Part shown: positions 49,716 to 63,236 of the stretch, one piece after another
How the letters are laid out: each line of letters opens with the position of its first letter
How positions within the stretch are numbered: the stretch's first letter is position 1
Origin: an uncultured delta proteobacterium
GTDB taxonomy: Bacteria; Desulfobacterota; Zymogenia; Zymogenales; Zymogenaceae
Direction: 5' to 3'
NCBI GenBank assembly: GCA_963735595.1
Contig: CAVTLK010000002.1
Span: 288,001-352,000, forward strand
DNA length: 64,000 nt
Notes under the pieces: model-generated
What the model was told of the DNA's origin: nothing
The model's input: only the letters and a program-made list of their open reading frames with translations
Database searches by the model: none
Program-made: the position numbers and the translations under genes

Positions 49716-50255
49716 TTAGGCGGCTACCATTCTCATATCACGCTTGAGCGTTTCCATGCGGATACGCCCGCGCTCCCGCGTTTTTTTGATCCCGCCGTCT
49801 ATCTTTTTTAGTTCGCTGAGGAGCTGCGCATCGCGCTGGTCGTGGCCGACGATCCACCGATGGAGGAGATCGCTTTCGAGACTGAGATGCTGTCTGAGGA
49901 TGTGGATGTATTGTGTAGCGTAATGAGGAAAGACCGCCCGCGCACCCTGATAGCCGAGGTCATAGGCCTCGATGACCTTGAGGAGAAACCGCTCGTATTT
50001 CCACAGGCTTGCGTGGGTTTCTTCACATTCCTGTCTGAGAGTTTCCACCCCGGGGCTTCCGAGGAGCGATAGAAGGAATTCCTCCCGTTTCATGTGGGAG
50101 ACATCGATATACATCTGCAGGAGTTCGATGATCTCCTTGAGCATATAAGGTGGAACCTCCTTATTCTGTTCCATCCGCCGGGCGGAGTGATCGAGCATCT
50201 CGAGCAGGGATTCTATGACCCGTTCTTCTTTCTTGACATATTCAATCGATTTCAT
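49716..50255 (-). CDS. Hemerythrin-like (HHE) domain protein
   Basis: SD GGAGGT before ATG 50255; YIDVSHMKREE, ETH, LRQHLSLE in a four-helix pattern. Confidence 0.75.
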   Translation of the reverse strand: MKSIEYVKKEERVIESLLEMLDHSARRMEQNKEVPPYMLKEIIELLQMYIDVSHMKREEFLLSLLGSPGVETLRQECEETHASLWKYERFLLKVIEAYDLGYQGARAVFPHYATQYIHILRQHLSLESDLLHRWIVGHDQRDAQLLSELKKIDGGIKKTRERGRIRMETLKRDMRMVAA

Positions 50256-50456
50256 ACTACCCACCTCCAAGACGTCATGTATCTGTGGGATTTTTGTTCG
50301 AAGCACCATCAAGGAGAGCCATTTACTATAAATTAGTCATGATACATCAGGTTTCAAGGCGTTATAGATCGCCTCGGAAAATAACAGAACTTCTTTTCAT
50401 GTGACGTAACAGAAAGGGGATATCCTCCTCTCATTGATCCTTCGCTTGTCCTTCCT

Positions 50457-51221
50457 TCATACCTTTTCCAGGATCTCTTTGGCCAGGTTCAGATAGGCCC
50501 GCGCCCCAACCGAGCTGACATCAAACAGGACCGCCGGATTGCCCCTCTTGGGGACTTCCGCCAGACGGGAGTTACGGGGAACGATCGTCTCAAATACCTT
50601 GGTCTTGAGGTCGCGTCTGAGGTCATAGGCCACCTCCTTTGATGTTGTAGTCCTTCCGTCCACCATAGTCAGGAGAAATCCGAGGAGCTTAAGATCCGGG
50701 TTATATCTTCCCCCCACGACGCGGGCCATCCTCATCAGACGTCCGATAGTCTTGAGTGCGAAGTATTCGCTCTGTACGGGAACCAGCAGGTAGTCGGCCG
50801 CGGCGATACCGGCCATCGTTACTGCGCCCAGCGAAGGGGGACAGTCTACGATGATGAACTCGTATTCCGCCTTGAGCACGTCGAGGATTCGCTTTATGAT
50901 GAGCAGGTCGTCGTTGATTGTGGAAAGGTAGAGCGTCTCCTCGTCATTTGTCCAGATGTTTGAGGGGATGAAACTAAGATACTCGATTTCGGTTCCGTGA
51001 ATGAGACGCTTCGGTTCGGCCTTATCGATAACGGCGTTGTACATCCCGCCGCGAAGCTGCTCCCGATCCCGTCCGAAGCTGATCCAGAGCCCGCACTGGG
51101 GATCAATGCCCACCACGAGGGTATTGCGCTCATACACGCCCAGGGAAGCGCCAAGATTAACCGCCGTGGTGGTTTTCCCAACCCCACCTTTTTGACTGGC
51201 TATCGTTATGACAATGCCCAT
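50457..51221 (-). CDS. ParA-family ATPase (ParC/PpfA-like, chemosensory-associated)
   Basis: SQKGGVGKTT, IDPQ, DCPPSLG, VPVQSEYFAL, LLTMVDGR, VPRNSRLAE; last gene of the che cluster, no parB nearby. Confidence 0.9.
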   Translation of the reverse strand: MGIVITIASQKGGVGKTTTAVNLGASLGVYERNTLVVGIDPQCGLWISFGRDREQLRGGMYNAVIDKAEPKRLIHGTEIEYLSFIPSNIWTNDEETLYLSTINDDLLIIKRILDVLKAEYEFIIVDCPPSLGAVTMAGIAAADYLLVPVQSEYFALKTIGRLMRMARVVGGRYNPDLKLLGFLLTMVDGRTTTSKEVAYDLRRDLKTKVFETIVPRNSRLAEVPKRGNPAVLFDVSSVGARAYLNLAKEILEKV

Positions 51222-51245: not shown

Positions 51246-52364
51246 TCAATGTCCGTTGGTGACCATAAGGTCGATCATCGCCGGGATCTGCTGGAGGGAA
51301 AGGACCGTATCGACAACGCCGTCTGCGATGGCCGATTTCGGCATTCCGAAGACGAGAGACGTCTTCTCGTCCTGGGCAATGGTCCTGCCTCCCATGATCT
51401 TGATCGCCTTGAAACCCCGCGAACCGTCCTTGCCCATCCCCGTGAGGATAACCCCGATCGTCTTTTGGCCGAAAATCGCCGCGGCCGAATAGAATAGGGT
51501 GTCGATCGAGGGAGTCGGTTTCGCTTGATCAGTACCCGCCTGCTGAAGCCCTATTTGCGGCGCCAGAAAAGACTTCTTGATCGTTATATCGTAATCGCCG
51601 GGGGCTACCAGAACCTTCCCGCCCTCCACGATTTCGCCATCCTGGGCCTCCACGACCGGCAGATGGCAAACCCGGTTAAGCCTTTCCGCGAAGAAGCGCG
51701 TAAAGAAACGGGGCATATGCTGAACGACGACGATGCCGACCGGGAAATTATCCCTGATTTTGCTCAGGATAAACTCGACGGCCTTTGGCCCTCCCGTCGA
51801 GGCGCCGATGACGACTACCTTGTTGTCGGACAGCTGCATCAGCTCCTGTCTGGTGTACCCTGACAGCGGCCTCTTGGGTGCTTCATCATGCAGCCGCGCG
51901 TCCATAGCCGCATCTTCTGCCCCCTTGATAGACAGGTAATACTCCATGTTGATAGCCGCGGCCGCCCTTATCTTAGCGATGAGCTCCTCCTTCAGGAACT
52001 GAAAGTTGAGCAGCATCGATCCTTTCTGAGGCTTCGTGATAAAATCGACGGCGCCGAGGTTAATAGCCCGAATCGTGATATTGGCCCCTTCCTTTGTGAG
52101 TCCGGAAAGCATGATGACGGGCGCCTGGTATTGTTCGACGAGCTCCCGTAATGCCGACAAACCGTCCATAGTGGGCATGATCACGTCCATGGTCACGACA
52201 TCGGGCTTGAATTCAATGTACTTCTTGATCGCCTCTTTACCGTCGGCCGCCAGCGCCGCGATCTCGATATCGGGTGTTTCTTCGACGACCTGGGTAATAG
52301 CCCGCCTGATAATCGCGGAATCGTCTACGACCAGGACCCTTATCTTCTTGCTATCCATTTTCAA
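51246..52364 (-). CDS. cheB: Chemotaxis response regulator methylesterase CheB
   Basis: REC domain (VVDDS, TMDVIMP, ITKP) plus the triad motifs GASTGGP, VQHMP, LTGMGKDG. The start may be ATG 52358. Confidence 0.95.
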   Translation of the reverse strand: MKMDSKKIRVLVVDDSAIIRRAITQVVEETPDIEIAALAADGKEAIKKYIEFKPDVVTMDVIMPTMDGLSALRELVEQYQAPVIMLSGLTKEGANITIRAINLGAVDFITKPQKGSMLLNFQFLKEELIAKIRAAAAINMEYYLSIKGAEDAAMDARLHDEAPKRPLSGYTRQELMQLSDNKVVVIGASTGGPKAVEFILSKIRDNFPVGIVVVQHMPRFFTRFFAERLNRVCHLPVVEAQDGEIVEGGKVLVAPGDYDITIKKSFLAPQIGLQQAGTDQAKPTPSIDTLFYSAAAIFGQKTIGVILTGMGKDGSRGFKAIKIMGGRTIAQDEKTSLVFGMPKSAIADGVVDTVLSLQQIPAMIDLMVTNGH

Positions 52365-52384: not shown

Positions 52385-55300
52385 CTATAGTTCTTCTTCC
52401 GGTTGATCCGGCGCCGGTGTTCGTTTGGGTTTGTAGCGTTCAAGCGTCTGATGCTTACGTATTGCCTTTTCCCGTTCTATGGCCAGATTTACCAATTCCA
52501 CTACGTCAAGTATCAGCGAGATAGAACCATCCCCCATGATTGAGGCGCCGGAAACTCCCTTGGTGTTGGCAAAATTCTTTTCAAGTGACTTGATGACGAT
52601 ATTGTCTTCCCCGACCAGCCGGTCGACCATCAGTCCAACCTCTCTGCCCTCGGCGGAAAGAATAACGATAAATAGATGCGTCGGCGGACTCGCGTCACCG
52701 GTTTGCCAGCCCATATTGGCCTTGAAGATTTCGCTGAGCTTGATAAGGGGCAGCACCTTGTCCCGTATCCTCAGGACCTGGTGGCTCTCGATCGTCTCTA
52801 TCTCTTCGATACCGATGCGGACAGTCTCAATGATAGACACCAGAGGGATCGCGTACACACGATCGGATATCCCCACAATCAGGGCCTGAATAATCGCCAG
52901 CGTCAGCGGCAGCTTGATCATAAAAGAGGTTCCGTTGTCCTTCACCGTCATGACTTCGACGGTTCCTTTCAGCTTTTCAATGTTTCTTTTAACAATGTCA
53001 AGCCCAACTCCCCTGCCGGAGACCTTACTGACCTTCCTGGCCATTGAGACCCCCGGCTTGAAGAGGTAGTCAAGGGCCTCACGGTCGGACACGCGGGAAA
53101 GCTCCTGGGCGGCAACCTCACCGTCGGCTACCATTCGCTTCTTCACGTCTTCCAGGTCGATTCCCTTTCCGTCGTCCTTTATATCTATGATGACCTGGTT
53201 ACCTTGATGGTACGCCGAGATTGAAAGCGTGCCTTCCTCCGGTTTTCCTTTCTTCTTTCGTTCTTCCCGGGACTCAATGCCGTGGTCTATCGAGTTGCGG
53301 ATGATGTGGATGAGGGGATCTCCGATTTCCTCGATGACCGACTTATCCAGTTCGGTCTCTTTGCCGGTAATCACGAGTTTGATATCCTTGTCCATGGCGT
53401 CGGCGAGATCGCGCACGAGCCGGGGAAAACGGGAGAAAAGCTGATTGATTCCGACCATCCTGACCCGCATGACTCCCTCCTGCAGGTCGTTGCTGATCCG
53501 TCCCAACTCCATTGCCGATGACTCGAGATCGAGGGCGAGCTGCCGAAGCAGGGAAAGCTCCCGCTTATTGAGTTTATCAAGATCATACATCTCCCGATAT
53601 ACGTCTCTGAAAACCCCGGTCAGCTGGGAGAATGTCGCCCTGTTTACGGCGAGCTCTCCTACAAGATTCATGATCGTATCAACACGCTCTGTTTCGACAC
53701 GCAGTGTCTGTCGCGAGTATGGAGCATCTGCGGGAAGCTCTCCGTCGTCTCCGGTCGGCTCACCGCCATCGGCGCCTCCCGGCCCGGCGCCCGCGTGGGT
53801 TTGCTCAGCGGAATCGATGGATACCGATTCCGACATACCGCTCAGGTCCATACGATCGCCGCCGATGTGTTCGGGGGACGGCTCGTCGGCGGCATCAACC
53901 GCGTCTTGCAGACCCTCGGCATCGGGGCGGGTTTTACCGGATACCGGGAGGGATTGGGAGCCCGTCAGCGAACCGATTTCTTCCTTCAATTTCGCATAAG
54001 ACTCCTCAAGGGCGGGGAGAATCGTTAACCCATCGTCAGTAACCGCCGATCCGTTGTTCAGGATCGTAAGCTGCTTATCGACGATATCAATCATCGAATA
54101 GTATCCCATGAATTTTGCCGAGGATTTGAGGCTCTCGAGGGCCTTCTTGCATACCTCGATACTTTCGGGAACGTCGGCCTTCTGTTTGATATGGGAGATA
54201 CAGGTATTGATCGTATCCAGGTGCTGGCCGGCTGCAGAAACGAAGATATCAAGGAGCTCCTCGTCCTCCGTGGTCTCCTGTTCCGAAGGCTCAGTAACGT
54301 CCACTGTCTCGGCCTTAACTACGGATTTCCTGAGCCCGCTCTTGAGATCGATGAGCCCGTTTATCAAAAGGTCCAAATCGGCCTGCTTAAGGCCCTCCTT
54401 GTCTGCCATGTATGTATCGATGAGCGTACGAATCGAGTCAAGGCGCTCTACGATGGTGTCGTATTCCATGTAGTGGGCCGATCTCCTGAGCTTCTGGAGG
54501 ACATCGAGCACCTCGGAGAGCGACTCCCGGTCGGCCGTCCTCTCCCGGATCTTCTGTTGATGTTTATCTATTATCGAGAAGAGATCGACGGTCGCCGACA
54601 GGAAGATGTCGATCAGCTCTTCGTCGTGACCGGCTGTCAGATCTTCAACAACTTCTTTGTTTGCCTGAGGGCCGCGCGCTGCAGGCGAGCCGCTGCGCCG
54701 CGGCTGACTCGGTTGAATCGGCTGAGTTACGCGCGCGGTATGGTCGTCCTTGAAGAATGACACGATGTCCTTGGCGAGCTTGAGGCTGATGCCGTTGACC
54801 GACTCCAGCTCTTCAATACGCGCATTTCTGAGCGACCCTATGGAACGAAAGCCGGCCTTATAGAGGAGTTTCACCTTGGAGCCGCCCACCCCCGGTATGA
54901 TGGTAAACTCCTTTATGGCCTGGTCGAGGGAGAGATCGCCGCCCGTATCTTTTGAGCTTTGTTCAGCTATCCCTCCCTGCCCGGATTTGTGTTTCCTGAC
55001 AAAGTCCTTAATATGGTCTAATGCCTTGTAGAAACTCAGGAGCTCGGTGCTGTTTATGTTTTCGCCTTCCTCTAAGAGCGCCAGAGCAGAATTCCTCATC
55101 CCCGCCAGTACGTTCTTGAGCTCATCGTAGCCAAAATACTCTATCGAGGAGGAAAAGCTGCTCACCAGATCCAGGAAGCGGTTCAGCTCCTCGATGGTCA
55201 TGTTGCCTTCAAGAGTCCCGAGCCCCCGCTCAAGGTCCTTTATGTGATGGGCAACGATCTCCCCGATACCCTCGTCGAAGATATCCGTCTGGCCCGTGCC

Positions 55301-55801
55301 GCCGCCCGCGCGATCGTCCGGTATGTCCTGATTCTTCCGCTCGTCACGTGTGGGAGGCGTCATCTCCGGCTCAGGACTCCGGTCAACAGGGCCTGCGGGA
55401 CTTATAAGGTCTTTTTCGCCCATAGATTCGAACGCGCCCCTGATCTTCGTTATGATCCGGTCGGTATCGGTCAACTCTTCGCCGGTTGTCGAGAGGTCAT
55501 TGAGAAGAGAATCGATACCGTCCTTTCCGTAAAACAGGACGTCGATGATTTCCCGGTTTATCTCGATCTTGCCCTGGCGAACCCGCTCGAGACACCCCTC
55601 CAATACGTGGAGGAAATCACCGAGTTTTACCAGGCCGATATAGTTTGCCGAGCCTTTGATGGTGTGTATGGACCGGAAGATCTGATTGAGGACCTCCTTG
55701 TTTTGGGGTTCCTCGAGGATCCGGTTGAGCGATTCTTCCAATTCCGCCAGGTGCTCGTTGCTCTCTATAATGAATTCCTTGAGCAATTCTTCGTCATACA
55801 T
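52385..55801 (-). CDS. cheA: Chemotaxis histidine kinase CheA, 1138 aa, expanded N-terminal region
   Basis: Hpt FRSIHTIKG (His46), dimerisation domain TLRVETERVDTIMNLVGEL, HIIRNSIDHGIE, DDGKGID, SGRGVGLDIV, LPLTLAI and a C-terminal CheW domain. Confidence 0.96.
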   Translation of the reverse strand: MYDEELLKEFIIESNEHLAELEESLNRILEEPQNKEVLNQIFRSIHTIKGSANYIGLVKLGDFLHVLEGCLERVRQGKIEINREIIDVLFYGKDGIDSLLNDLSTTGEELTDTDRIITKIRGAFESMGEKDLISPAGPVDRSPEPEMTPPTRDERKNQDIPDDRAGGGTGQTDIFDEGIGEIVAHHIKDLERGLGTLEGNMTIEELNRFLDLVSSFSSSIEYFGYDELKNVLAGMRNSALALLEEGENINSTELLSFYKALDHIKDFVRKHKSGQGGIAEQSSKDTGGDLSLDQAIKEFTIIPGVGGSKVKLLYKAGFRSIGSLRNARIEELESVNGISLKLAKDIVSFFKDDHTARVTQPIQPSQPRRSGSPAARGPQANKEVVEDLTAGHDEELIDIFLSATVDLFSIIDKHQQKIRERTADRESLSEVLDVLQKLRRSAHYMEYDTIVERLDSIRTLIDTYMADKEGLKQADLDLLINGLIDLKSGLRKSVVKAETVDVTEPSEQETTEDEELLDIFVSAAGQHLDTINTCISHIKQKADVPESIEVCKKALESLKSSAKFMGYYSMIDIVDKQLTILNNGSAVTDDGLTILPALEESYAKLKEEIGSLTGSQSLPVSGKTRPDAEGLQDAVDAADEPSPEHIGGDRMDLSGMSESVSIDSAEQTHAGAGPGGADGGEPTGDDGELPADAPYSRQTLRVETERVDTIMNLVGELAVNRATFSQLTGVFRDVYREMYDLDKLNKRELSLLRQLALDLESSAMELGRISNDLQEGVMRVRMVGINQLFSRFPRLVRDLADAMDKDIKLVITGKETELDKSVIEEIGDPLIHIIRNSIDHGIESREERKKKGKPEEGTLSISAYHQGNQVIIDIKDDGKGIDLEDVKKRMVADGEVAAQELSRVSDREALDYLFKPGVSMARKVSKVSGRGVGLDIVKRNIEKLKGTVEVMTVKDNGTSFMIKLPLTLAIIQALIVGISDRVYAIPLVSIIETVRIGIEEIETIESHQVLRIRDKVLPLIKLSEIFKANMGWQTGDASPPTHLFIVILSAEGREVGLMVDRLVGEDNIVIKSLEKNFANTKGVSGASIMGDGSISLILDVVELVNLAIEREKAIRKHQTLERYKPKRTPAPDQPEEEL

Positions 55802-55892: not shown

Positions 55893-56654
55893 TTATATGC
55901 TCGTATACAGTATATGGATTCCGACAAATAACATTACGAAAATAAAGAACTCCCTGAGCGAGTCTGTGCGCATACGCCGCGATATCTGAGAGCCGAGATA
56001 CGATCCGATAATTACGCCCGGCAGCCCCCACGCAACCGCCATAGGAGACAGGCTCCCGCCGAGCGACAGATGGGCGGTCAGGCCCATAACGACAACGATG
56101 AACATAACCGCAAGGGCCGTGCCGACGGCCACTTCCATACTGTAGTTGAGCCTTTTGACCATGGACGGCACAATAAAATCGCCGACGCCGATGGACAAGA
56201 GACCGCTCAGGAACGAAAAGAAGAACGGGATATACCCGACACGGGCGGCCTGTCTTACGCCTACGCGTCGGAGCTCGTTGTCCATATACCAATCCCGGCC
56301 GGAAAGGAAGAAGATGGCCAAACCGACGGCCGCCGTTCCCAGTCCCAGCCTCAGCACGTTATCGGGGAGGTACGTGCCCACGACGGAGCCGGCTATTACC
56401 ATCGGCAGCGCCAGGCCTGCGTAAAAGAGAGCCACTTTGATGTCTACCCTCCCGGACCGCCAGTATGCGATGGTCCCGACCCCCATCCCCCCTACCTGGA
56501 TAGCCAGCGCAGTGGTGATGGCCTCCGGTGGCTGAATGCGGTACAGGAGGATTAGCACGGGCGACCACAAGATCCCCCCTCCAATGCCGAGCATAACGGC
56601 TACCGTGGAAATGGCAATCCCAAAAAGGAAGATCGTAAACGGAAACTGCTCCAT
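55893..56654 (-). CDS. TSUP family (TauE/SafE) membrane transporter
   Basis: 253 aa, about 8 TM; LGIGGGILWSP and LSIGVGDFIVP repeats, AVGTAL, IGSYLGSQI. Confidence 0.88.
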   Translation of the reverse strand: MEQFPFTIFLFGIAISTVAVMLGIGGGILWSPVLILLYRIQPPEAITTALAIQVGGMGVGTIAYWRSGRVDIKVALFYAGLALPMVIAGSVVGTYLPDNVLRLGLGTAAVGLAIFFLSGRDWYMDNELRRVGVRQAARVGYIPFFFSFLSGLLSIGVGDFIVPSMVKRLNYSMEVAVGTALAVMFIVVVMGLTAHLSLGGSLSPMAVAWGLPGVIIGSYLGSQISRRMRTDSLREFFIFVMLFVGIHILYTSI

Positions 56655-56660
56655 AGGGTT

Positions 56661-57284
56661 TTATCTCTTCAACCGGGATAAATCAGCCCTGGCGAGGTTG
56701 AAATCCCTTGTCATCTCATCGAGTTGTTCCATCTCTTCAGAGATACGCTCCATATCGGCCAGTACGACCTCGTGGTCGCCTTTCTCATACGCCGCCTTCA
56801 TGGACCGGACCCGCTCACGGCACCTGTTGCCCGTAATACGCACCACTCCAATAACCTCACCGAAATCGGAGACGACGTCGTTGATAAACCGTCCCAGTCT
56901 CCCGATTTCATCGTTCACATAGACCGGGATCGGATTCCCGAAATCACCCTGTGCCATATTCGCCGTAACGGCAAACATACGCCGGAGGGGTATGGTAATC
57001 TTTTTAACGAACAGAATCAGTACAACGCCCGTTACGAAGGACTGGATCGCGATCAGGAAAATCACCTTTCTCTTTATCTGATCGATGGGGGCCGTAGCCG
57101 GGCCGCTACCCATTTGCGCCTGATACTGACCCTGGGAACCGGGTCCCAAACCCCGATTCGGCTCCTGAGCGTTGATGTCAATGAGAAACTCAAATCCGAG
57201 CACTAACGAGGAAAAGACGATGATACAGACGTATATCATCATCCTCCTGGTCAGCGTGACGGTTCTTGTATTCGTTGGTTTCAT
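56661..57284 (-). CDS. 2-TM HAMP protein with no signalling domain (tip-less chemoreceptor-like)
   Basis: TM1, short loop, TM2, HAMP ITIPLRRM...GDF...PVYVNDEIGRLGRFIND, then about 60 aa of coiled coil and a stop. Confidence 0.82.
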   Translation of the reverse strand: MKPTNTRTVTLTRRMMIYVCIIVFSSLVLGFEFLIDINAQEPNRGLGPGSQGQYQAQMGSGPATAPIDQIKRKVIFLIAIQSFVTGVVLILFVKKITIPLRRMFAVTANMAQGDFGNPIPVYVNDEIGRLGRFINDVVSDFGEVIGVVRITGNRCRERVRSMKAAYEKGDHEVVLADMERISEEMEQLDEMTRDFNLARADLSRLKR

Positions 57285-57286
57285 CG

Positions 57287-58099
57287 TTATATAAATATAC
57301 CCAACACGACGTTTCTATTGTCCCAGATCATCTTGATGCCGGTCAGAAAGACGAAGAGCGAAAAGAACGTCTTCAAAAGAGATCCCTTGGCGAGCCTGTT
57401 GATGATCGGACCCAGCTGGCCTCCGATCAAGACGCCGCCCATCGTGAAGATCGCAACCTCCCACCGGATCTGGCCCTCCCAGATATTGATGGATGTTGCC
57501 ACCCATCCGGCCAGCCCTTCCACGACCACGGTCGTGGCAATAGCCCGATGGACGTTCATCTTGTATACCCGCTCCAGGAGGGGAAACGAGGTCTCGGCGG
57601 TACCGATGGAGGAAAGACCGCTCGAAATACCCCCGATGAACGGAACCCACGCGAAGGGGTAGATTTCCTCAGTCAAAAAACCTTCGCGGTCTCCGTATCG
57701 TTTTTCCGCCATAGATGCGAAAGTCCAGACGGCGCAACACGTTACGACGAGTCCGAAAAAGATCTTAAGGATCGCCTCATCGAGCACCATCACCAGGTGC
57801 AGGCCGATAACGACGCCGGGTATGGTCAGCAGTACCATCGGGAACGCCATGGAAAACTCGATCTGCCTTTGCCTGGTGTACGCGACCATGCCTGACGTCA
57901 TGCCGCAGAGCTCCGTGACCATGCCGGTCCCTATCGCCTCCGGCACGCTCATCTTGAGTGCGTAGACGAAAATGGGGAAAAAGATAATGGCGCCCCCGAA
58001 CCCGCTGCTGGTGGCCATCGATGCCGCCAGGATAGCCACCGGAAACATAAACCAGTAGTGAGTCGTCGCAGACCAGATGTAGTGACCAACGGCTTCCAT
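57287..58099 (-). CDS. TSUP family (TauE/SafE) membrane transporter
   Basis: 270 aa, about 8 TM; SGFGGAIIFFP, AIGTG, SSIGTAE, AIATTV, GVLIGGQLGP. Confidence 0.88.
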   Translation of the reverse strand: MEAVGHYIWSATTHYWFMFPVAILAASMATSSGFGGAIIFFPIFVYALKMSVPEAIGTGMVTELCGMTSGMVAYTRQRQIEFSMAFPMVLLTIPGVVIGLHLVMVLDEAILKIFFGLVVTCCAVWTFASMAEKRYGDREGFLTEEIYPFAWVPFIGGISSGLSSIGTAETSFPLLERVYKMNVHRAIATTVVVEGLAGWVATSINIWEGQIRWEVAIFTMGGVLIGGQLGPIINRLAKGSLLKTFFSLFVFLTGIKMIWDNRNVVLGIFI

Positions 58100-58112
58100 G
58101 TGATCCTTCCCT

Positions 58113-58841
58113 TTACACTTTCGTTAGATCGACCTGATAGAACTTGAATGATTCCACCAGGGACTTCAGCTCGCCGATATTGGAGTAAAGTGTGTTCAAC
58201 TCCCGTCGAATATCTTCGGTAATTTCCTTTTCCTTAAGGACCTCAACGCTGTTATAGACGCTGTCGACCGACCGGACGGCCGAATTATTGATCTTACCCA
58301 CCATGAGCAGTACTTCCTGAAAATCGGCGGTTATATCGTTAATGATAGAGCCAAGCTGGCCGATCTCGTCCTTCGTGTAGACCGGCATCGTCGTGGAGAG
58401 GTTTCCCCGTGATATCTCCCGGGCGGCGTGTACCATTTCGTCCAGCGGCCCGGCCACCTCCTTGATGAAGAACCAGAGCGCCACGCCGACGCAAAAGATG
58501 GTGATGGCCAGGATAATGAGCATCCGTTTCTGGAGATGGTAGAGGGGGGCGAAAACCTGCTCGTAATCAAGGTCTTCTACGGACCCCTCGATATTCTGGG
58601 CCCGGGCCTCGGCGACGAAATTGCCCTGCATCTTGTTGGTAAGCCTGGCTTCCCCGATCTCCCAGATCAATTCAAGGCTCATGGAGATCGAGACAGCCAC
58701 GATCAACAGAAAATAGATGAGCAGCTTTTTCTTCAGGTTGGTGAAGACCGCGCGTTTTCTCCGCAGCAAAAGGCTGCTTCTGCGTTCTGTTTTTCTCCGA
58801 TCAGTTCCATCCCAATCGGGACTCCCGTTTTTATACGTCAT
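58113..58841 (-). CDS. 2-TM HAMP protein with no signalling domain (tip-less chemoreceptor-like)
   Basis: TM1, about 45-aa loop, TM2, HAMP AGPLDEM...GNL...PVYTKDEIGQLGSIIND, then coiled coil ending LKSLVESFKF. Confidence 0.82.
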   Translation of the reverse strand: MTYKNGSPDWDGTDRRKTERRSSLLLRRKRAVFTNLKKKLLIYFLLIVAVSISMSLELIWEIGEARLTNKMQGNFVAEARAQNIEGSVEDLDYEQVFAPLYHLQKRMLIILAITIFCVGVALWFFIKEVAGPLDEMVHAAREISRGNLSTTMPVYTKDEIGQLGSIINDITADFQEVLLMVGKINNSAVRSVDSVYNSVEVLKEKEITEDIRRELNTLYSNIGELKSLVESFKFYQVDLTKV

Positions 58842-58922: not shown

Positions 58923-59297
58923 TTAATCTTCCAGAATTTTAACGATCCGCTCCCTGAGCTCTTCCGGTTTGAATGGCTTGAGGATGACCGCCTTGATCCC
59001 CATCTTGAGGGCCGCTTCTTCAAGGAAGTGCTTTTCTTCCTCCTGCCGCAACGTCAGGAGTACCAGCCTGGCCGTCGGGTCTTCCTTCAGGATCTGTTCT
59101 GCCGCAGCAAAACCGTCGGTGTTTCTCATGGTGACGTCCAGGGTTACCAGATCGGGCTTGAGCTCGCGAAATAGCGCGACCGCCTCGTCGCCATCCTTTG
59201 CCTCTCCGATCACCTTCAGTTCACCGCCGTCCAACGCTTCCTTGATCCGGTTCCTCATGAACGACGAATCATCCACCACCAATAACCTCTTAGCCAT
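58923..59297 (-). CDS. cheY: Single-domain response regulator, CheY-like
   Basis: LVVDDSSFMR, LVTLDVTM, ILKPF; 124 aa. Confidence 0.88.
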   Translation of the reverse strand: MAKRLLVVDDSSFMRNRIKEALDGGELKVIGEAKDGDEAVALFRELKPDLVTLDVTMRNTDGFAAAEQILKEDPTARLVLLTLRQEEEKHFLEEAALKMGIKAVILKPFKPEELRERIVKILED

Positions 59298-59469: not shown

Positions 59470-61845
59470 TTACTGCCCGGCTGCCTTGATCGCTTCTTCC
59501 TTCTCTATTTCCTCGGTGGTGCGGTATTTGAACTGCTGCATCAAGCCGACGTTGGCGCCCGATGATTCCACGATGTTCCGCTGGAATTCGGACACCTGTG
59601 ATGCCTGTGCGGCAACGCGCTCCGCGTTCCTGGATTCGTCTGCGACCGACTTGTTGACGGTATCGGCGATACTAACGACCGACTCGATGTTCTTTTCCAC
59701 GGTCGTAGTGGCGCGTCCCGACTCGCCGGTCATCTCCACGATTTCCTGCGCAAGAGACGCCAGGTCGTCCATCGACCTGAGGACTTCTTCGATACTCCTC
59801 AGCTGCTGGGCCATGGCGTCGGCAACGATCTGGTTGATCTTGACGGCCTCGTTACCACCATCCACACCGATCTGCAGGAACTCGGCAGCCTGCTTGGCAA
59901 GTCCGGAGTTTGTCCTGGTAACTTCGCGGTTGGTCTCGACGTTCTTCAGAATGGTGGAAAGGGTCTGGGCGATGTCGCCGGCGGCCTTTGATCCCTGCTC
60001 AACTGCCTTGTTGGCGTTCTTAATAAGATCGGAGATCTCCTTGGTTGCGTCGGCGCTGCGCTCGGCCAGCTTCCGCACCTCGTCGGCGACGACCGCAAAG
60101 CCCTTGCCGTGTTCCCCGGCACGGGCCGCCTCGATGGCGGCGTTAAGCGCCAGGAGGTTGGTCTGCTCGGCGATGTCGTTGATGACCTCGACGATCTCAA
60201 ACACCTGCTCGGTCGACTCCGTAATGGCCTTCATGCCTTCCTCGTTCAGCCGCACACCCTCCTGGCCCTTCTGCACGATACCCATGACCTCCTCGGCGCG
60301 GTCGGACGCTTTGGCCGCCTCCTGGGACACGGTGTTAGCGATATTCAGGGCGTCGTTAAGCTTCTTGACCGCCTCGACGCTGCCTATACGAACCCGCTCG
60401 GCCTCCCGGGCAACCTCGGTAAGCGACGCTGCCATCTCGTTGACCGCCGATGATGTCTGGGCCGCGTTGGTGGCCTGGGCGTTGGCGCGCTCCTGAACCT
60501 GCCGTGAGGCCTTGGCCACCTCGCCCGCCAGAGACAGCGACTCGTGAGAACTGCGCGCGGCCTCGTCGGTGACGTTCGTGATCCGCTCAAGCGATCCCCT
60601 GAGCGCGCCCATCAGGCCCGCGTTGTCTGCAGACAGCGGCGCAGCCGACTCGCTGTAGCTACGCACGAGGCCGGCGTTCCTGGCGACCCTGGCCACGATG
60701 CCTTCGAGCCTGAAGACAAACTCGTTAAATCCCCGGGCAAGCATCCCGATCTCGTCATCGCCCGCGGCGGGAAGCCGCCTGGTCAGGTCGGCGCCGGCGC
60801 CCGCCAGGGCGGTCATCTCGTTTGCGATCCTGATGATCGGCTGGGCAATGGCGCGGGCAAGCAGATAGCCGACGCCGGCCGCTATGAACAGGATAAGGAT
60901 GGTCATCAGGGTTGCGTAGTTCCGTGTCGCATTCAATGACGCGAGGACCTCGTCTTCACCCTGCTCAGCGACCAGGATCCAGTTGTAATCCGCAAGGTAA
61001 TCAACAACCCCGAAGACGTCGTTGCCCAGATAGTTCTTCCACCGCCCAACGGTGAGGTCTTCCCCGCCTCCCTCCTCTTTGCCGGAGATCACGTCGGGGA
61101 GGGACTTAGCTTTGAGGAAGGCGTCGCTTTTGCTCAAATCGAGCTCGAGGATGGAGCTCTCCTTGATCATGCCCTCTTTCTTCAGCTCGTCGACAAAACG
61201 TGACTCCGAAATCATCAATCCCGTACTCGCGTCGATCAGATACACCTCACCGGTCTCTCCCAGGGACATAGATTCTCTGAGGAGGTTGCTGAGGTACTTC
61301 ATGTTGACCTGCTCAACAAAGACGCCGACTGTCGTATTGCCCCTCTTAACGGCAGAGGCGAGTACGAGAATCGGGTTTTTGGTACGGTTACTGAAAACCA
61401 TTTCGTATTGTCGTTCGGCCTTTCCGCTCATTATGTCCTTGTAATATTGGCGCTCTTTGATCGTAATTGTCCCGATATACCTCGGTTCGCTGTCCGCCAC
61501 TATATAACCGCCGCCCCCCTCGCAGTAGCTGATACCTTCAAGGTAGTCGGCCCTGCTTTTAACCAATGCCCCGAAAAAGATATTTGCCAGCGCATAATCT
61601 CCTGATTCAAGCGACGACGTAAACTCGAGGTCCGTCGGAAAGTCGTTAAGATCATGTCCTCTTTCTGACATGAAAGAACGCACCAAACCGTCCGCTGAAT
61701 CAACCAAAGACGTTAGACGTTCCCGGGTAAGATTTTCCGTGTCGGACTTGATCCGGTAATATGCCAGGACCGAGATCGTCAGCGCCGGTACGAGGGCCAT
61801 AAGGACGATCGCGATGATCAGCCTGGTTCGCAGTGTAAACTTCAT
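59470..61845 (-). CDS. Methyl-accepting chemotaxis protein (dCache-like sensor, HAMP, MA domain)
   Basis: 2 TM flanking a large extracytoplasmic domain, HAMP DLTRRL...DEIG, tip [40 protein letters not shown]. Confidence 0.96.
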
Positions 61846-61889: not shown

Positions 61890-62378
61890 TCACAGGGTGG
61901 AGAGCTGCCGCTGCTCGCCGGCCGTCAATATTTTCGAGAAATCCAGGAGAATAACCAGACGGTCGTCGATTCTGCTTACACCGGTGATATACTCGCCCTC
62001 CACCCCGCTCATGATCATATCCGGGGCGCCCTGCACGGACCCCGCGGGCACGGTTATGACCTTCGATACCGAATCGACCACAAAACCGGTAACCCGTTTT
62101 TCCAGCTCGATAATGATGATACGCGTTGCCTTATCGGCATCAATCGTGGGAATGTTGAGCCGTTTCCTGAGGTCGATAACCGGGACTACCTTTCCGCGCA
62201 GGTTGATGACCCCCTCGACGAACCGCGGGGTATTGGGGACTTCGGTTACCGGTGCCGGCCGTATGATCTCCTGCACCAGGAGGATATCGACTCCGAACTC
62301 TTCCTGGCCTAAGAAGAAGGTCACTATCTGGAAATCGCCGGTCGGCGTTGTCTTTGGTTTTCGCGATATTTCGGACAT
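61890..62378 (-). CDS. cheW: Chemotaxis coupling protein CheW
   Basis: FFLGQEEFGVDILLVQEI, VEGVINLRGKVVPVIDLR, GFVVDSV; SD GGAGGT. Confidence 0.95.
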   Translation of the reverse strand: MSEISRKPKTTPTGDFQIVTFFLGQEEFGVDILLVQEIIRPAPVTEVPNTPRFVEGVINLRGKVVPVIDLRKRLNIPTIDADKATRIIIIELEKRVTGFVVDSVSKVITVPAGSVQGAPDMIMSGVEGEYITGVSRIDDRLVILLDFSKILTAGEQRQLSTL

Positions 62379-62402
62379 AACTGTCACCTCCACGTATCTT
62401 CG

Positions 62403-63236
62403 CTACTGTTTCTTATATATAAAGACGTCATTGACGCGCTCCTGCATGAACCGGTCGGTATGGCGGAGGACCGATTCGGTAGAGGCGGTAAAAAGGAAAC
62501 CGCCCGGATTCAATACATCGGAAAGCCCATTCACGAGGGTGCGCGCACGATCGTTCGAAAAATACATTAAGACGTTACGGCAGAAGACGGCGTCGAACGA
62601 GAAAGCGGGTCGACGCACCCACGACCGGGTGTCGTTGAGGTTGACAGGGTAAAACTCGACTAACCGTTTAACCCGGTCATCGACCTGCCAGTATCCGCCG
62701 TCTTCGATCATATACTTCACCCGATACTCCTCCGGGAGATGACGGACCGACCAATCTTCATACCGCGCGGTCCGCGCATGGCGCAGGGACTTCGTATTGA
62801 TGTCACAGCCCACGATCTTCACTTTAAGGTCGCCGGCTTCCAGTATCTTTCCGAATCGCTCCAGAACGATCATCGCCACGGTGTAAGGCTCTTCACCGGT
62901 GGAACAGCCTGCTGAAAGTATATTGATTCTTCGGTCGAGCGCGGTCCCCGATTCAAAGAGCCGACCCAACACTTCTTCCTGGAATACGATACATTGGTCT
63001 TCCTCCCGGTAGAAGTAGGTCTCGCTGACCGCCAGCCTGTCAAGGAGCTCAACGACTTCGGTGTCGGGCGCCCGGTGCTTTACGTAAAGGAAGTAGCTGA
63101 AGGGATTCTCAATTTCGAGCTCCCTCTGACGCTCGGCGACCTTCTTCTTAAAGACCTTGGCCCTTCCGTTGAGTATTGTCACTCCCGTGACCTCCTGGAC
63201 GTAGTCCATGACCATGTCGACTCCGTCCCTATTCAC
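62403..63236 (-). CDS. cheR: Chemotaxis methyltransferase CheR
   Basis: SETYFYRE, SAGCSTGEEPYT, FCRNVLMYF, LNPGGFL. Confidence 0.95.
   Translation of the reverse strand: MNRDGVDMVMDYVQEVTGVTILNGRAKVFKKKVAERQRELEIENPFSYFLYVKHRAPDTEVVELLDRLAVSETYFYREEDQCIVFQEEVLGRLFESGTALDRRINILSAGCSTGEEPYTVAMIVLERFGKILEAGDLKVKIVGCDINTKSLRHARTARYEDWSVRHLPEEYRVKYMIEDGGYWQVDDRVKRLVEFYPVNLNDTRSWVRRPAFSFDAVFCRNVLMYFSNDRARTLVNGLSDVLNPGGFLFTASTESVLRHTDRFMQERVNDVFIYKKQ

Follow-up and report, generated by a model that had tools for sequence, protein, structure and literature searches.

A conserved HAMP-TSUP gene pair in a chemosensory cluster

A small transmembrane HAMP protein without an output domain and a permease of the TauE/SafE (TSUP) family form a conserved gene pair, which exists in two ancient types and three phyla. 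We describe it from contig CAVTLK010000002.1 of an uncultured delta proteobacterium (Desulfobacterota, Zymogenaceae; genome 93% complete), where the window, the whole stretch of 64,000 nt that was analyzed, holds both types in tandem among chemosensory genes. Sequence patterns give what we consider an even chance that the permease does the sensing and its tip-less HAMP partner the transducing, in the service of a non-flagellar chemosensory pathway.

The gene order on the minus strand is cheY, HAMP-A, TSUP-A, HAMP-B, TSUP-B, cheA. As a sequence-only reading of the window had described, the four cassette genes are intact, co-oriented open reading frames, separated by 13, 2, and 6 nt; cheY lies 81 nt and cheA 91 nt away. 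The features of the cassette are as follows.

58113..58841, minus strand: HAMP-A, candidate output-less transducer of the A type, 242 aa (Pfam HAMP, residues 125 to 169)
58662..58727, minus strand: first transmembrane helix (TM1) of HAMP-A, residues 39 to 60, with the motif Y43-F44...E57, which tracks the adjacent TSUP
57287..58099, minus strand: TSUP-A, TauE/SafE permease of clade A, predicted partner of HAMP-A, 270 aa (Pfam, tree, gene neighborhood)
56661..57284, minus strand: HAMP-B, candidate output-less transducer of the B type, 207 aa (Pfam, structural model)
57183..57248, minus strand: TM1 of HAMP-B, residues 13 to 34, with Y18...E32 (motif conservation)
55893..56654, minus strand: TSUP-B, TauE/SafE permease of clade B, predicted partner of HAMP-B, 253 aa (Pfam, tree)

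The two permeases score 135 and 144 bits against Pfam TauE (PF01925; cutoff, 32.6) and are 25% identical across 253 residues (E = 8e-18); the invariant residues of TSUP-B are G-GGG-LW-P, Q53, and H247. Both HAMP proteins exceed the Pfam HAMP cutoff and have two hydrophobic segments each. They had been read as divergent outside one shared motif (PVYTKDEIGQLGSIINDITADFQEV in HAMP-A, PVYVNDEIGRLGRFINDVVSDFGEV in HAMP-B). The motif is indeed present, but the proteins align over their full length, with 26% identity across 210 residues (E = 8e-25), and a second common motif sits in TM1.

The identical four-gene order was found in four related genomes (G003, G006, G007, and G008), in a genome of another family (G057), and in five Spirochaetota loci, and a further genome (G009) carries the same genes across two contigs; this recurrence is far beyond chance. 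In G003 (locus L018), HAMP-B, TSUP-B, cheA, and the MCP (methyl-accepting chemotaxis protein) gene are each broken by frameshifts, most likely assembly errors in a close relative. A promoter and terminator scan of the locus remained at chance level (9 versus 8.4; 14 versus 13.0), and a single RNA run (0.06 of words matched; contigs mostly <90% alike) left TSUP-A/HAMP-B uncovered.

HAMP and TSUP genes are paired across genomes

A motif search of GTDB contigs specific to TSUP-B gave 133 relatives, and the neighbors of the best 80 were examined. HAMP-B lies directly upstream in 72 of these 80 loci, whose hosts are Desulfobacterota (Desulfosarcina, Desulfatitalea, Desulfonema, and Desulfomonile) and Gammaproteobacteria. 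A search with an A-type HAMP motif gave 36 loci which, less two known Zymogenaceae loci, left 34 loci of Spirochaetota. TSUP-A follows HAMP-A directly in 33 of them, the 34th being cut, and the five mentioned above continue with HAMP-B and TSUP-B, the full cassette in another phylum. The HAMP family occurs in 7 genomes of a sample of 131 Spirochaetota, each time with TSUP-A adjoining. Nine TSUP-A loci came from metagenomes; HAMP-A stands upstream in 6/6 of those having upstream DNA, and one locus reads cheY-HAMP-A-TSUP-A-cheA, without the B pair. Among 401 genomes of the window's own phylum, the HAMP family was found in 20 and TSUP-B in 22, and all 20 fall within the 22, a count that is partly circular because 13 HAMP neighbors went into the TSUP-B profile. 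Matches in G195 (1070-aa frame), G271 (652-aa frame), and G144 (591-aa frame) were excluded as false family matches.

In a quick tree, TSUP-A (SH-aLRT 99) and TSUP-B (94) unite in one clade (99); 25 other TSUPs from the phylum stand apart from it, and at 0 of 28 other TSUP loci does a HAMP gene of this kind lie within 1.5 kb. The HAMP family tree also shows two clades, A and B, whose support is modest (SH-aLRT 81 and 88); every labelled copy that lies between cheY and cheA belongs to A, and every labelled TSUP-B neighbor to B. Given the TSUP tree and the pairing, the duplication is an old one, and the permeases make up a dedicated subfamily. The proposal that both copies had long been kept thus agrees with the TSUP and HAMP trees; the expected linkage of the two genes elsewhere was found in the TSUP-B, Spirochaetota, and metagenome loci, and the che-linked TSUPs do form a clade. 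Mirror-tree correlations (rho) were 0.81 for HAMP-B/TSUP-B and 0.62 for TSUP-B/CheA (19 loci), values that speak for joint inheritance only.

Two loci depart from the usual layout. In G368 (L078:613-4524), HAMP-B comes after a molybdopterin oxidoreductase/NrfD operon and TSUP-B is on another contig; in G127 (L083:7164-8937), the gene after HAMP-B encodes a third and divergent TSUP of the clade that unites TSUP-A and TSUP-B.

A TM1 motif accompanies the adjoining permease

The residues Y43-F44, together with E or Q at position 57, are present in TM1 of 30/30 HAMP-A copies with an adjoining TSUP and of 2/13 copies without one; the two motif-bearing exceptions are from one genus, whose genomes hold TSUP-B without a HAMP neighbor. 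HAMP-B TM1 contains the same Y and E, 14 residues apart, in 120/121 and 121/121 rows of the alignment, respectively. Between phyla, HAMP-A is 55% identical in TM1 versus 43% in the HAMP domain, and TM1 identity is 22% among TSUP-less copies. Pairwise identity of HAMP-B is 51% in TM1, 45% in TM2, and 50% in HAMP, and its conserved transmembrane positions cluster on one helical face; the MCPs of the clusters, by contrast, show 28% and 18% in their transmembrane helices and 37% in HAMP. The correlation of the motif with the neighboring gene suggests that HAMP and TSUP proteins touch within the membrane, and we think it probable that they are physically paired.

The HAMP proteins share the front end of a chemoreceptor and lack its tip

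HAMP-A consists of an Arg-rich N terminus, TM1, a short loop, TM2, the HAMP domain, and a helical tail of ~60 aa. An AlphaFold2 model of HAMP-B from 121 rows (predicted local distance difference test score [pLDDT], 84) has helices at residues 11-39, 65-111, 126-167, and 171-193 and reads as a transmembrane hairpin with a low-confidence loop, a HAMP domain, and a short terminal hairpin; the helices past HAMP are 144-167 and 171-193. The loop between the transmembrane helices, of 30 to 40 residues, is only 11 to 14% identical and thus unconserved, which makes ligand binding there unlikely. Both proteins have the TM1-TM2-HAMP front end of MCPs, and TM2-HAMP plus ~20 more residues align with the cluster MCP (hhalign probability, 97%). 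The tail aligns to the MCP C terminus at E = 0.005 to 0.012, and a sliding control did not favor the C terminus; its profile score there was -16/-15, compared with -23.5 for shuffled sequence, -11.5 for interior MCP windows, and +23.5 for itself. The tail is thus no more similar to MCP C termini than stretches from inside the MCP coiled coil are.

The chemoreceptor tip motif was found in 0/70 A-type and 0/121 B-type rows, and Pfam MCPsignal did not match. No conserved tail His emerged (the maximum in any column was 14/70 for A and 10/121 for B), nor did Pfam detect a HATPase or kinase domain; NCBIfam kinase models scored far under their cutoffs. Past HAMP, Q175/E176 is invariant in 70/70 A-type rows and E143 in 121/121 B-type rows, with small residues preceding these positions in 67 to 96% of rows. 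The methylation consensus of MCPs is small-small-x-x-[EQ][EQ]-x-x-small-small; its downstream half is unmatched here, small residues following QE in 0 to 4% (A) and 57/5% (B) of rows. QE is kept in 13/13 TSUP-less A copies; its E is found in 8/30 TSUP-linked A copies and is mostly D in those of Spirochaetota. A copies located among che genes share N-x-Q-E-x-L-L and a terminal F-x-F-Y, and the HAMP-B tail is weakly conserved (18%).

A profile search of 1.84 billion representatives returned, among the best 150, ~140 proteins of 190 to 280 aa at E < 1e-21 and no HAMP-TSUP fusion of ~460 aa; a search of longer proteins (486 to 2000 aa) gave only generic poly-HAMP kinases and MCPs. Foldseek with the HAMP-B model found no match at E <= 0.001, the top rows being fragments of WalK, McpB, Tsr, and Af1503, and an atlas search with HAMP-B gave unnamed HAMP clusters only.

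The N terminus of HAMP-A (58740-58841) carries W-x-G-x-D-R-R / E-R-R repeats, which are longer in relatives and occur in 8/70 A rows. These resemble the c-di-GMP-binding motif [Y/F]xGP[D/E][R/K]R, as given in PMC5677366; they mismatch that consensus and, with their narrow distribution, do not count as a core feature.

The pair is an optional module of a probably non-flagellar chemosensory pathway

Genes for CheA, CheW, or an MCP occur in 37 of the 80 TSUP-B loci and in 22 of the 35 that span at least 15 kb, in several gene orders, including a head-to-head one in Gammaproteobacteria. The CheAs of this class form one clade (94), and the class is present, by score, tree, or locus, in 21/22 TSUP-B genomes, the remaining genome being 67% complete; four close relatives (88 to 94% complete) lack both the cassette and the che cluster. 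A 17/18 figure for the link is inflated by query choice, since the wider class comprises ~35 genomes (6 lower-scoring ones checked by gene content), with the pair in 21. A division of the CheAs into core and sister groups, drawn from a score gap, was abandoned, as the lower-scoring CheAs nest within the same clade. In 13 loci, an A copy keeps its place behind cheY although no TSUP adjoins it. The che class also occurs without the pair, and the pair without che genes, so that the pair is an optional module of the pathway. The predicted co-occurrence with che genes is real but loose: it stands for the TSUP-B genomes and most long loci, and fails for 13 of the 35 long loci, which have no che core, and for Spirochaetota, where the pair is unlinked to cheA and cheW.

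Among the Spirochaetota, 21/34 pairs touch a gene with an MCP domain: the gene after TSUP-A codes for a seven-transmembrane (7-TM) MCP without HAMP in 16/34 loci and for a soluble protein with an MCP domain in 3, and 2 loci have an MCP just upstream of the pair. The 7-TM MCP (L315:11598-13289 and 15 orthologs) has about seven transmembrane helices and neither a HAMP domain nor an N-terminal region of any known family; it is missing from the five loci that continue with HAMP-B/TSUP-B, and an atlas search with its 7-TM domain returned nothing above 0.8.

The output of the pathway is probably not a flagellum. FliG was not found in the window's genome, which argues against flagellar taxis there, while PilT and several MglA are present; FliG was absent from 7/9 carrier genomes tested, and PilT was present in 5/5.

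Proposed mechanism and alternatives

We propose that the Y-F...E face of TM1 would pack on the permease, as a rhodopsin transducer does on its receptor. Substrate binding or flux would shift the permease, and the shift could run via TM2 to the HAMP four-helix bundle and the terminal hairpin. Whether the signal then enters the chemosensory pathway is, to our mind, evenly balanced. Lacking a tip, the HAMP protein cannot make the canonical tip contact with CheW and CheA, so the signal must go sideways; in what is the weakest step, the hairpin would act either on a chemoreceptor of full length or on a soluble Che protein that has docked. Candidate contact surfaces are the invariant QE past HAMP and the F-x-F-Y that ends the A copies located among che genes; type IV pili, or some other function that involves no flagellum, would probably be the output. 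That the substrate is a small anion is a guess from nothing more than the family name. The suggestion that flux of a sulfur oxyanion is the signal found no support beyond that name: dsrA is absent from 4/5 carrier genomes tested, including this one.

A fuller version, which we put forward tentatively and rate well below an even chance, is a split chemoreceptor, in which a TSUP subfamily has become the sensory subunit, signal conversion falls to the HAMP protein, and the tip comes from a separate chemoreceptor. The supplier might, just as tentatively, be the long MCP in Desulfobacterota and the HAMP-less 7-TM MCP in Spirochaetota. If this were true, it would be a new input route to chemosensory arrays in three phyla; and were a signal to enter the array without a tip, this would be a new way of wiring a chemoreceptor.

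Several observations weigh against the sensor-transducer reading. With neither a tip nor a conserved His in the HAMP proteins, the output step has no direct support. An adjacent HAMP-B is missing from 8/80 TSUP-B loci, though three of these have <900 nt upstream and one checked genome (L166) has HAMP-B elsewhere. Besides the 13 long loci that are devoid of che core genes, the che class occurs without HAMP-B in G391, G174, G144, G312, and G367; G088 has the che cluster and HAMP-A, with no HAMP-B or TSUP-B; and 13 HAMP-A copies in che operons have no adjoining TSUP. These 13 come from few lineages, related copies being non-independent, and the conserved transmembrane face could equally be the core of a HAMP dimer. 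None of the 34 Spirochaetota loci contains cheA or cheW, the long CheA of Spirochaetota is a separate clade, and the 16 MCP neighbors there are orthologs in related genomes.

The same complex could instead run in reverse, with the HAMP protein gating the permease on a cytoplasmic cue, for example when CheR/CheB methylate QE or a Che protein docks. We regard this as unlikely, although it has the best claim among the alternatives. The invariance of QE and the small residues before it would suit a methylated site, but the half of the consensus downstream of it is unmatched and its E is mostly D in Spirochaetota. The clusters have two or three CheB-type proteins, but cheR was seen only in Zymogenaceae-type loci, and some che operons retain an A copy although they offer it no permease to regulate. 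Regulation of transport has been proposed for STAC/Af1503 systems, according to PMC4834066.

That the HAMP protein serves the transporter as a structural or assembly subunit, its proximity to che genes reflecting co-regulation or cargo, appears improbable. Standalone pairs do occur in many genomes (13/35 long loci; G112, G343, G183, G241, and G268), but these genomes still have the che class elsewhere, and A copies keep their fixed slot between cheY and cheA. The poor conservation of the HAMP-B tail speaks for this reading, the strong conservation of the HAMP domain (50%) against it. A NitT/TauT-type ABC transporter likewise accompanies the che loci, in 32 of 37, which also favors the reading; the independent linkage of the pair to MCP genes in Spirochaetota disfavors it.

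Quite improbable, in our view, is that the HAMP proteins modulate the array alone, for instance as partners without a tip to the long MCP, with no contact to the permease and a TSUP linkage that is only operonic. The 13 A copies in che operons without a TSUP, all of which retain QE, and G088, with the cluster and HAMP-A only, favor it, and Tar dimers with one cytoplasmic domain can reportedly signal. The TM1 motif is nevertheless lost in most TSUP-less copies (2/13 versus 30/30), the TSUP clade is a dedicated one, and the pair is retained without che genes nearby. That the HAMP genes are what decay has left of chemoreceptors or kinases, as the alignment of TM2-HAMP and ~20 residues to the cluster MCP might suggest, can hardly be true and is refuted by conservation, given the ~140 representatives of similar length with their invariant residues, the confident model, and retention in three phyla.

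Comparison with known systems

In the sensory rhodopsin II-HtrII complex, a two-TM transducer signals for an intramembrane partner receptor. The A-type profile matches HtrII structures (PDB 2F95, 4GYC, and 5JJN), weakly (E = 1e-4 to 1e-3), and HAMP-A and HAMP-B resemble HtrII in having two TMs, no ligand-binding loop, a HAMP domain under the membrane, and a partner derived from a transporter family. Unlike HtrII, which has a full signaling tip and a rhodopsin partner, they are tip-less, their partner is a TSUP, and their complex is a proposed one.

Af1503 of Archaeoglobus fulgidus is presented in PMC4834066 as an output-less, STAC-coupled HAMP receptor, with an extracellular sensor and HAMP as its sole cytosolic part. 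The resemblance lies in a transmembrane HAMP protein without effector in a transporter-rich context, the Af1503 operon, as reported there, having one of the MgtE type. Unlike the archaeal protein, those described here are bacterial and have an unconserved loop, a ~60-aa hairpin past HAMP, one-to-one pairing with a TSUP clade, and a chemosensory context. The spacers of the cassette (13/2/6 nt) are too small for a gene of STAC size (60 to 90 aa); no STAC profile search was made.

Transporter-family proteins are known in signal transduction: CbrA is described as a transceptor, a fusion of SLC5, STAC, and histidine kinase (10.64898/2026.03.10.710862), and SoxT1B of Hyphomicrobium as a transporter-like signaling unit acting on a repressor, SoxT1A/B being a paralog pair in sulfur handling (PMC11582611). 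The TSUPs would resemble both in this respect; the transporter folds differ, and neither system, as those sources portray it, uses a separate HAMP protein or the Che pathway. Unlike in CbrA, the transporter and the signaling part are encoded by separate genes here. TauE/SafE proteins are known as sulfite/organosulfonate exporters (PF01925; PMC5840216), and the same source calls the family ubiquitous and almost uncharacterized, its function unpredictable from sequence. TSUP-A and TSUP-B pass the family cutoff but form their own HAMP-tied clade; a sequence search found no solved relative of them. MAC proteins, which according to 10.1101/2022.05.07.491037 combine a chemoreceptor-like coiled coil with a kinase domain and occur with CheB/CheR, differ in that HAMP-A and HAMP-B have no kinase domain (by Pfam; MAC profiles were not run).

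A full-text literature search, which did not cover subscription journals and supplementary tables, found no paper on a HAMP-TSUP pair. The pair is real and conserved, and apparently undescribed. We take it as a new variety of transporter-coupled sensing, which fails membership of the HtrII, CbrA, and Af1503 types. Through it, a single TSUP clade is linked with a single HAMP family by a prediction at the level of residues (Y-F...E on TM1), and it bears on the standing puzzle of output-less HAMP proteins. It also sits at an unstudied non-flagellar chemosensory class of Spirochaetota, Gammaproteobacteria of the sulfur cycle, and anaerobes from sediment and sludge, with Desulfosarcina alkanivorans PL12 and D. 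variabilis (loci L165 and L135) as cultured carriers.

The surrounding chemosensory cluster

The cluster reads cheB, a CheB variant (extra receiver and DUF4388), a cheY-like gene, cheR, cheW, MCP, cheY, the cassette, cheA, cheB, and parA. Its other annotated features are as follows.

62403..63236, minus strand: CheR (Pfam)
61890..62393, minus strand: CheW (Pfam)
59470..61845, minus strand: dCache-HAMP chemoreceptor (MCP), signaling arms of ~200 aa each (Pfam)
58923..59297, minus strand: CheY (Pfam)
52385..55801, minus strand: CheA, 1138 aa, with Hpt, helix-hairpin-helix insert, dimerization, ATPase, and CheW domains (Pfam, tree)
51246..52364, minus strand: CheB (Pfam)
50457..51221, minus strand: ParA-family ATPase (Pfam)

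The window's CheA belongs to one CheA clade with DUF4388-CheB clusters; between its Hpt and dimerization domains lie a helix-hairpin-helix (residues 300-352) and repeated Hpt-like helical blocks. The genome has two che clusters, and just two MCPs with a tip were found in it, one of them the cluster MCP. Arms of ~200 residues (56 to 60 heptads) are common to all MCPs of the che class, and the cluster MCP is nearest, by length alone, to the 58H length class as set out in PMC6943060.

Other traits of the che class are REC-DUF4388-CheB proteins, a zinc-ribbon ParA, and often MglA/MglB; its loci include L093, L101, L106, L125, L135, L165, and L258, and cheR was seen only in those of the Zymogenaceae type. 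Past parA in the window lies a hemerythrin-like gene (49716-50312), which has two paralogs in the genome (81% and 56%) and whose position is not kept in other genera. The NitT/TauT-type ABC transporter of the che-containing loci has an NMT1-like binding protein, and its genes remain with cheA even where HAMP-B/TSUP-B is inverted or missing, a second pathway-tied transporter.

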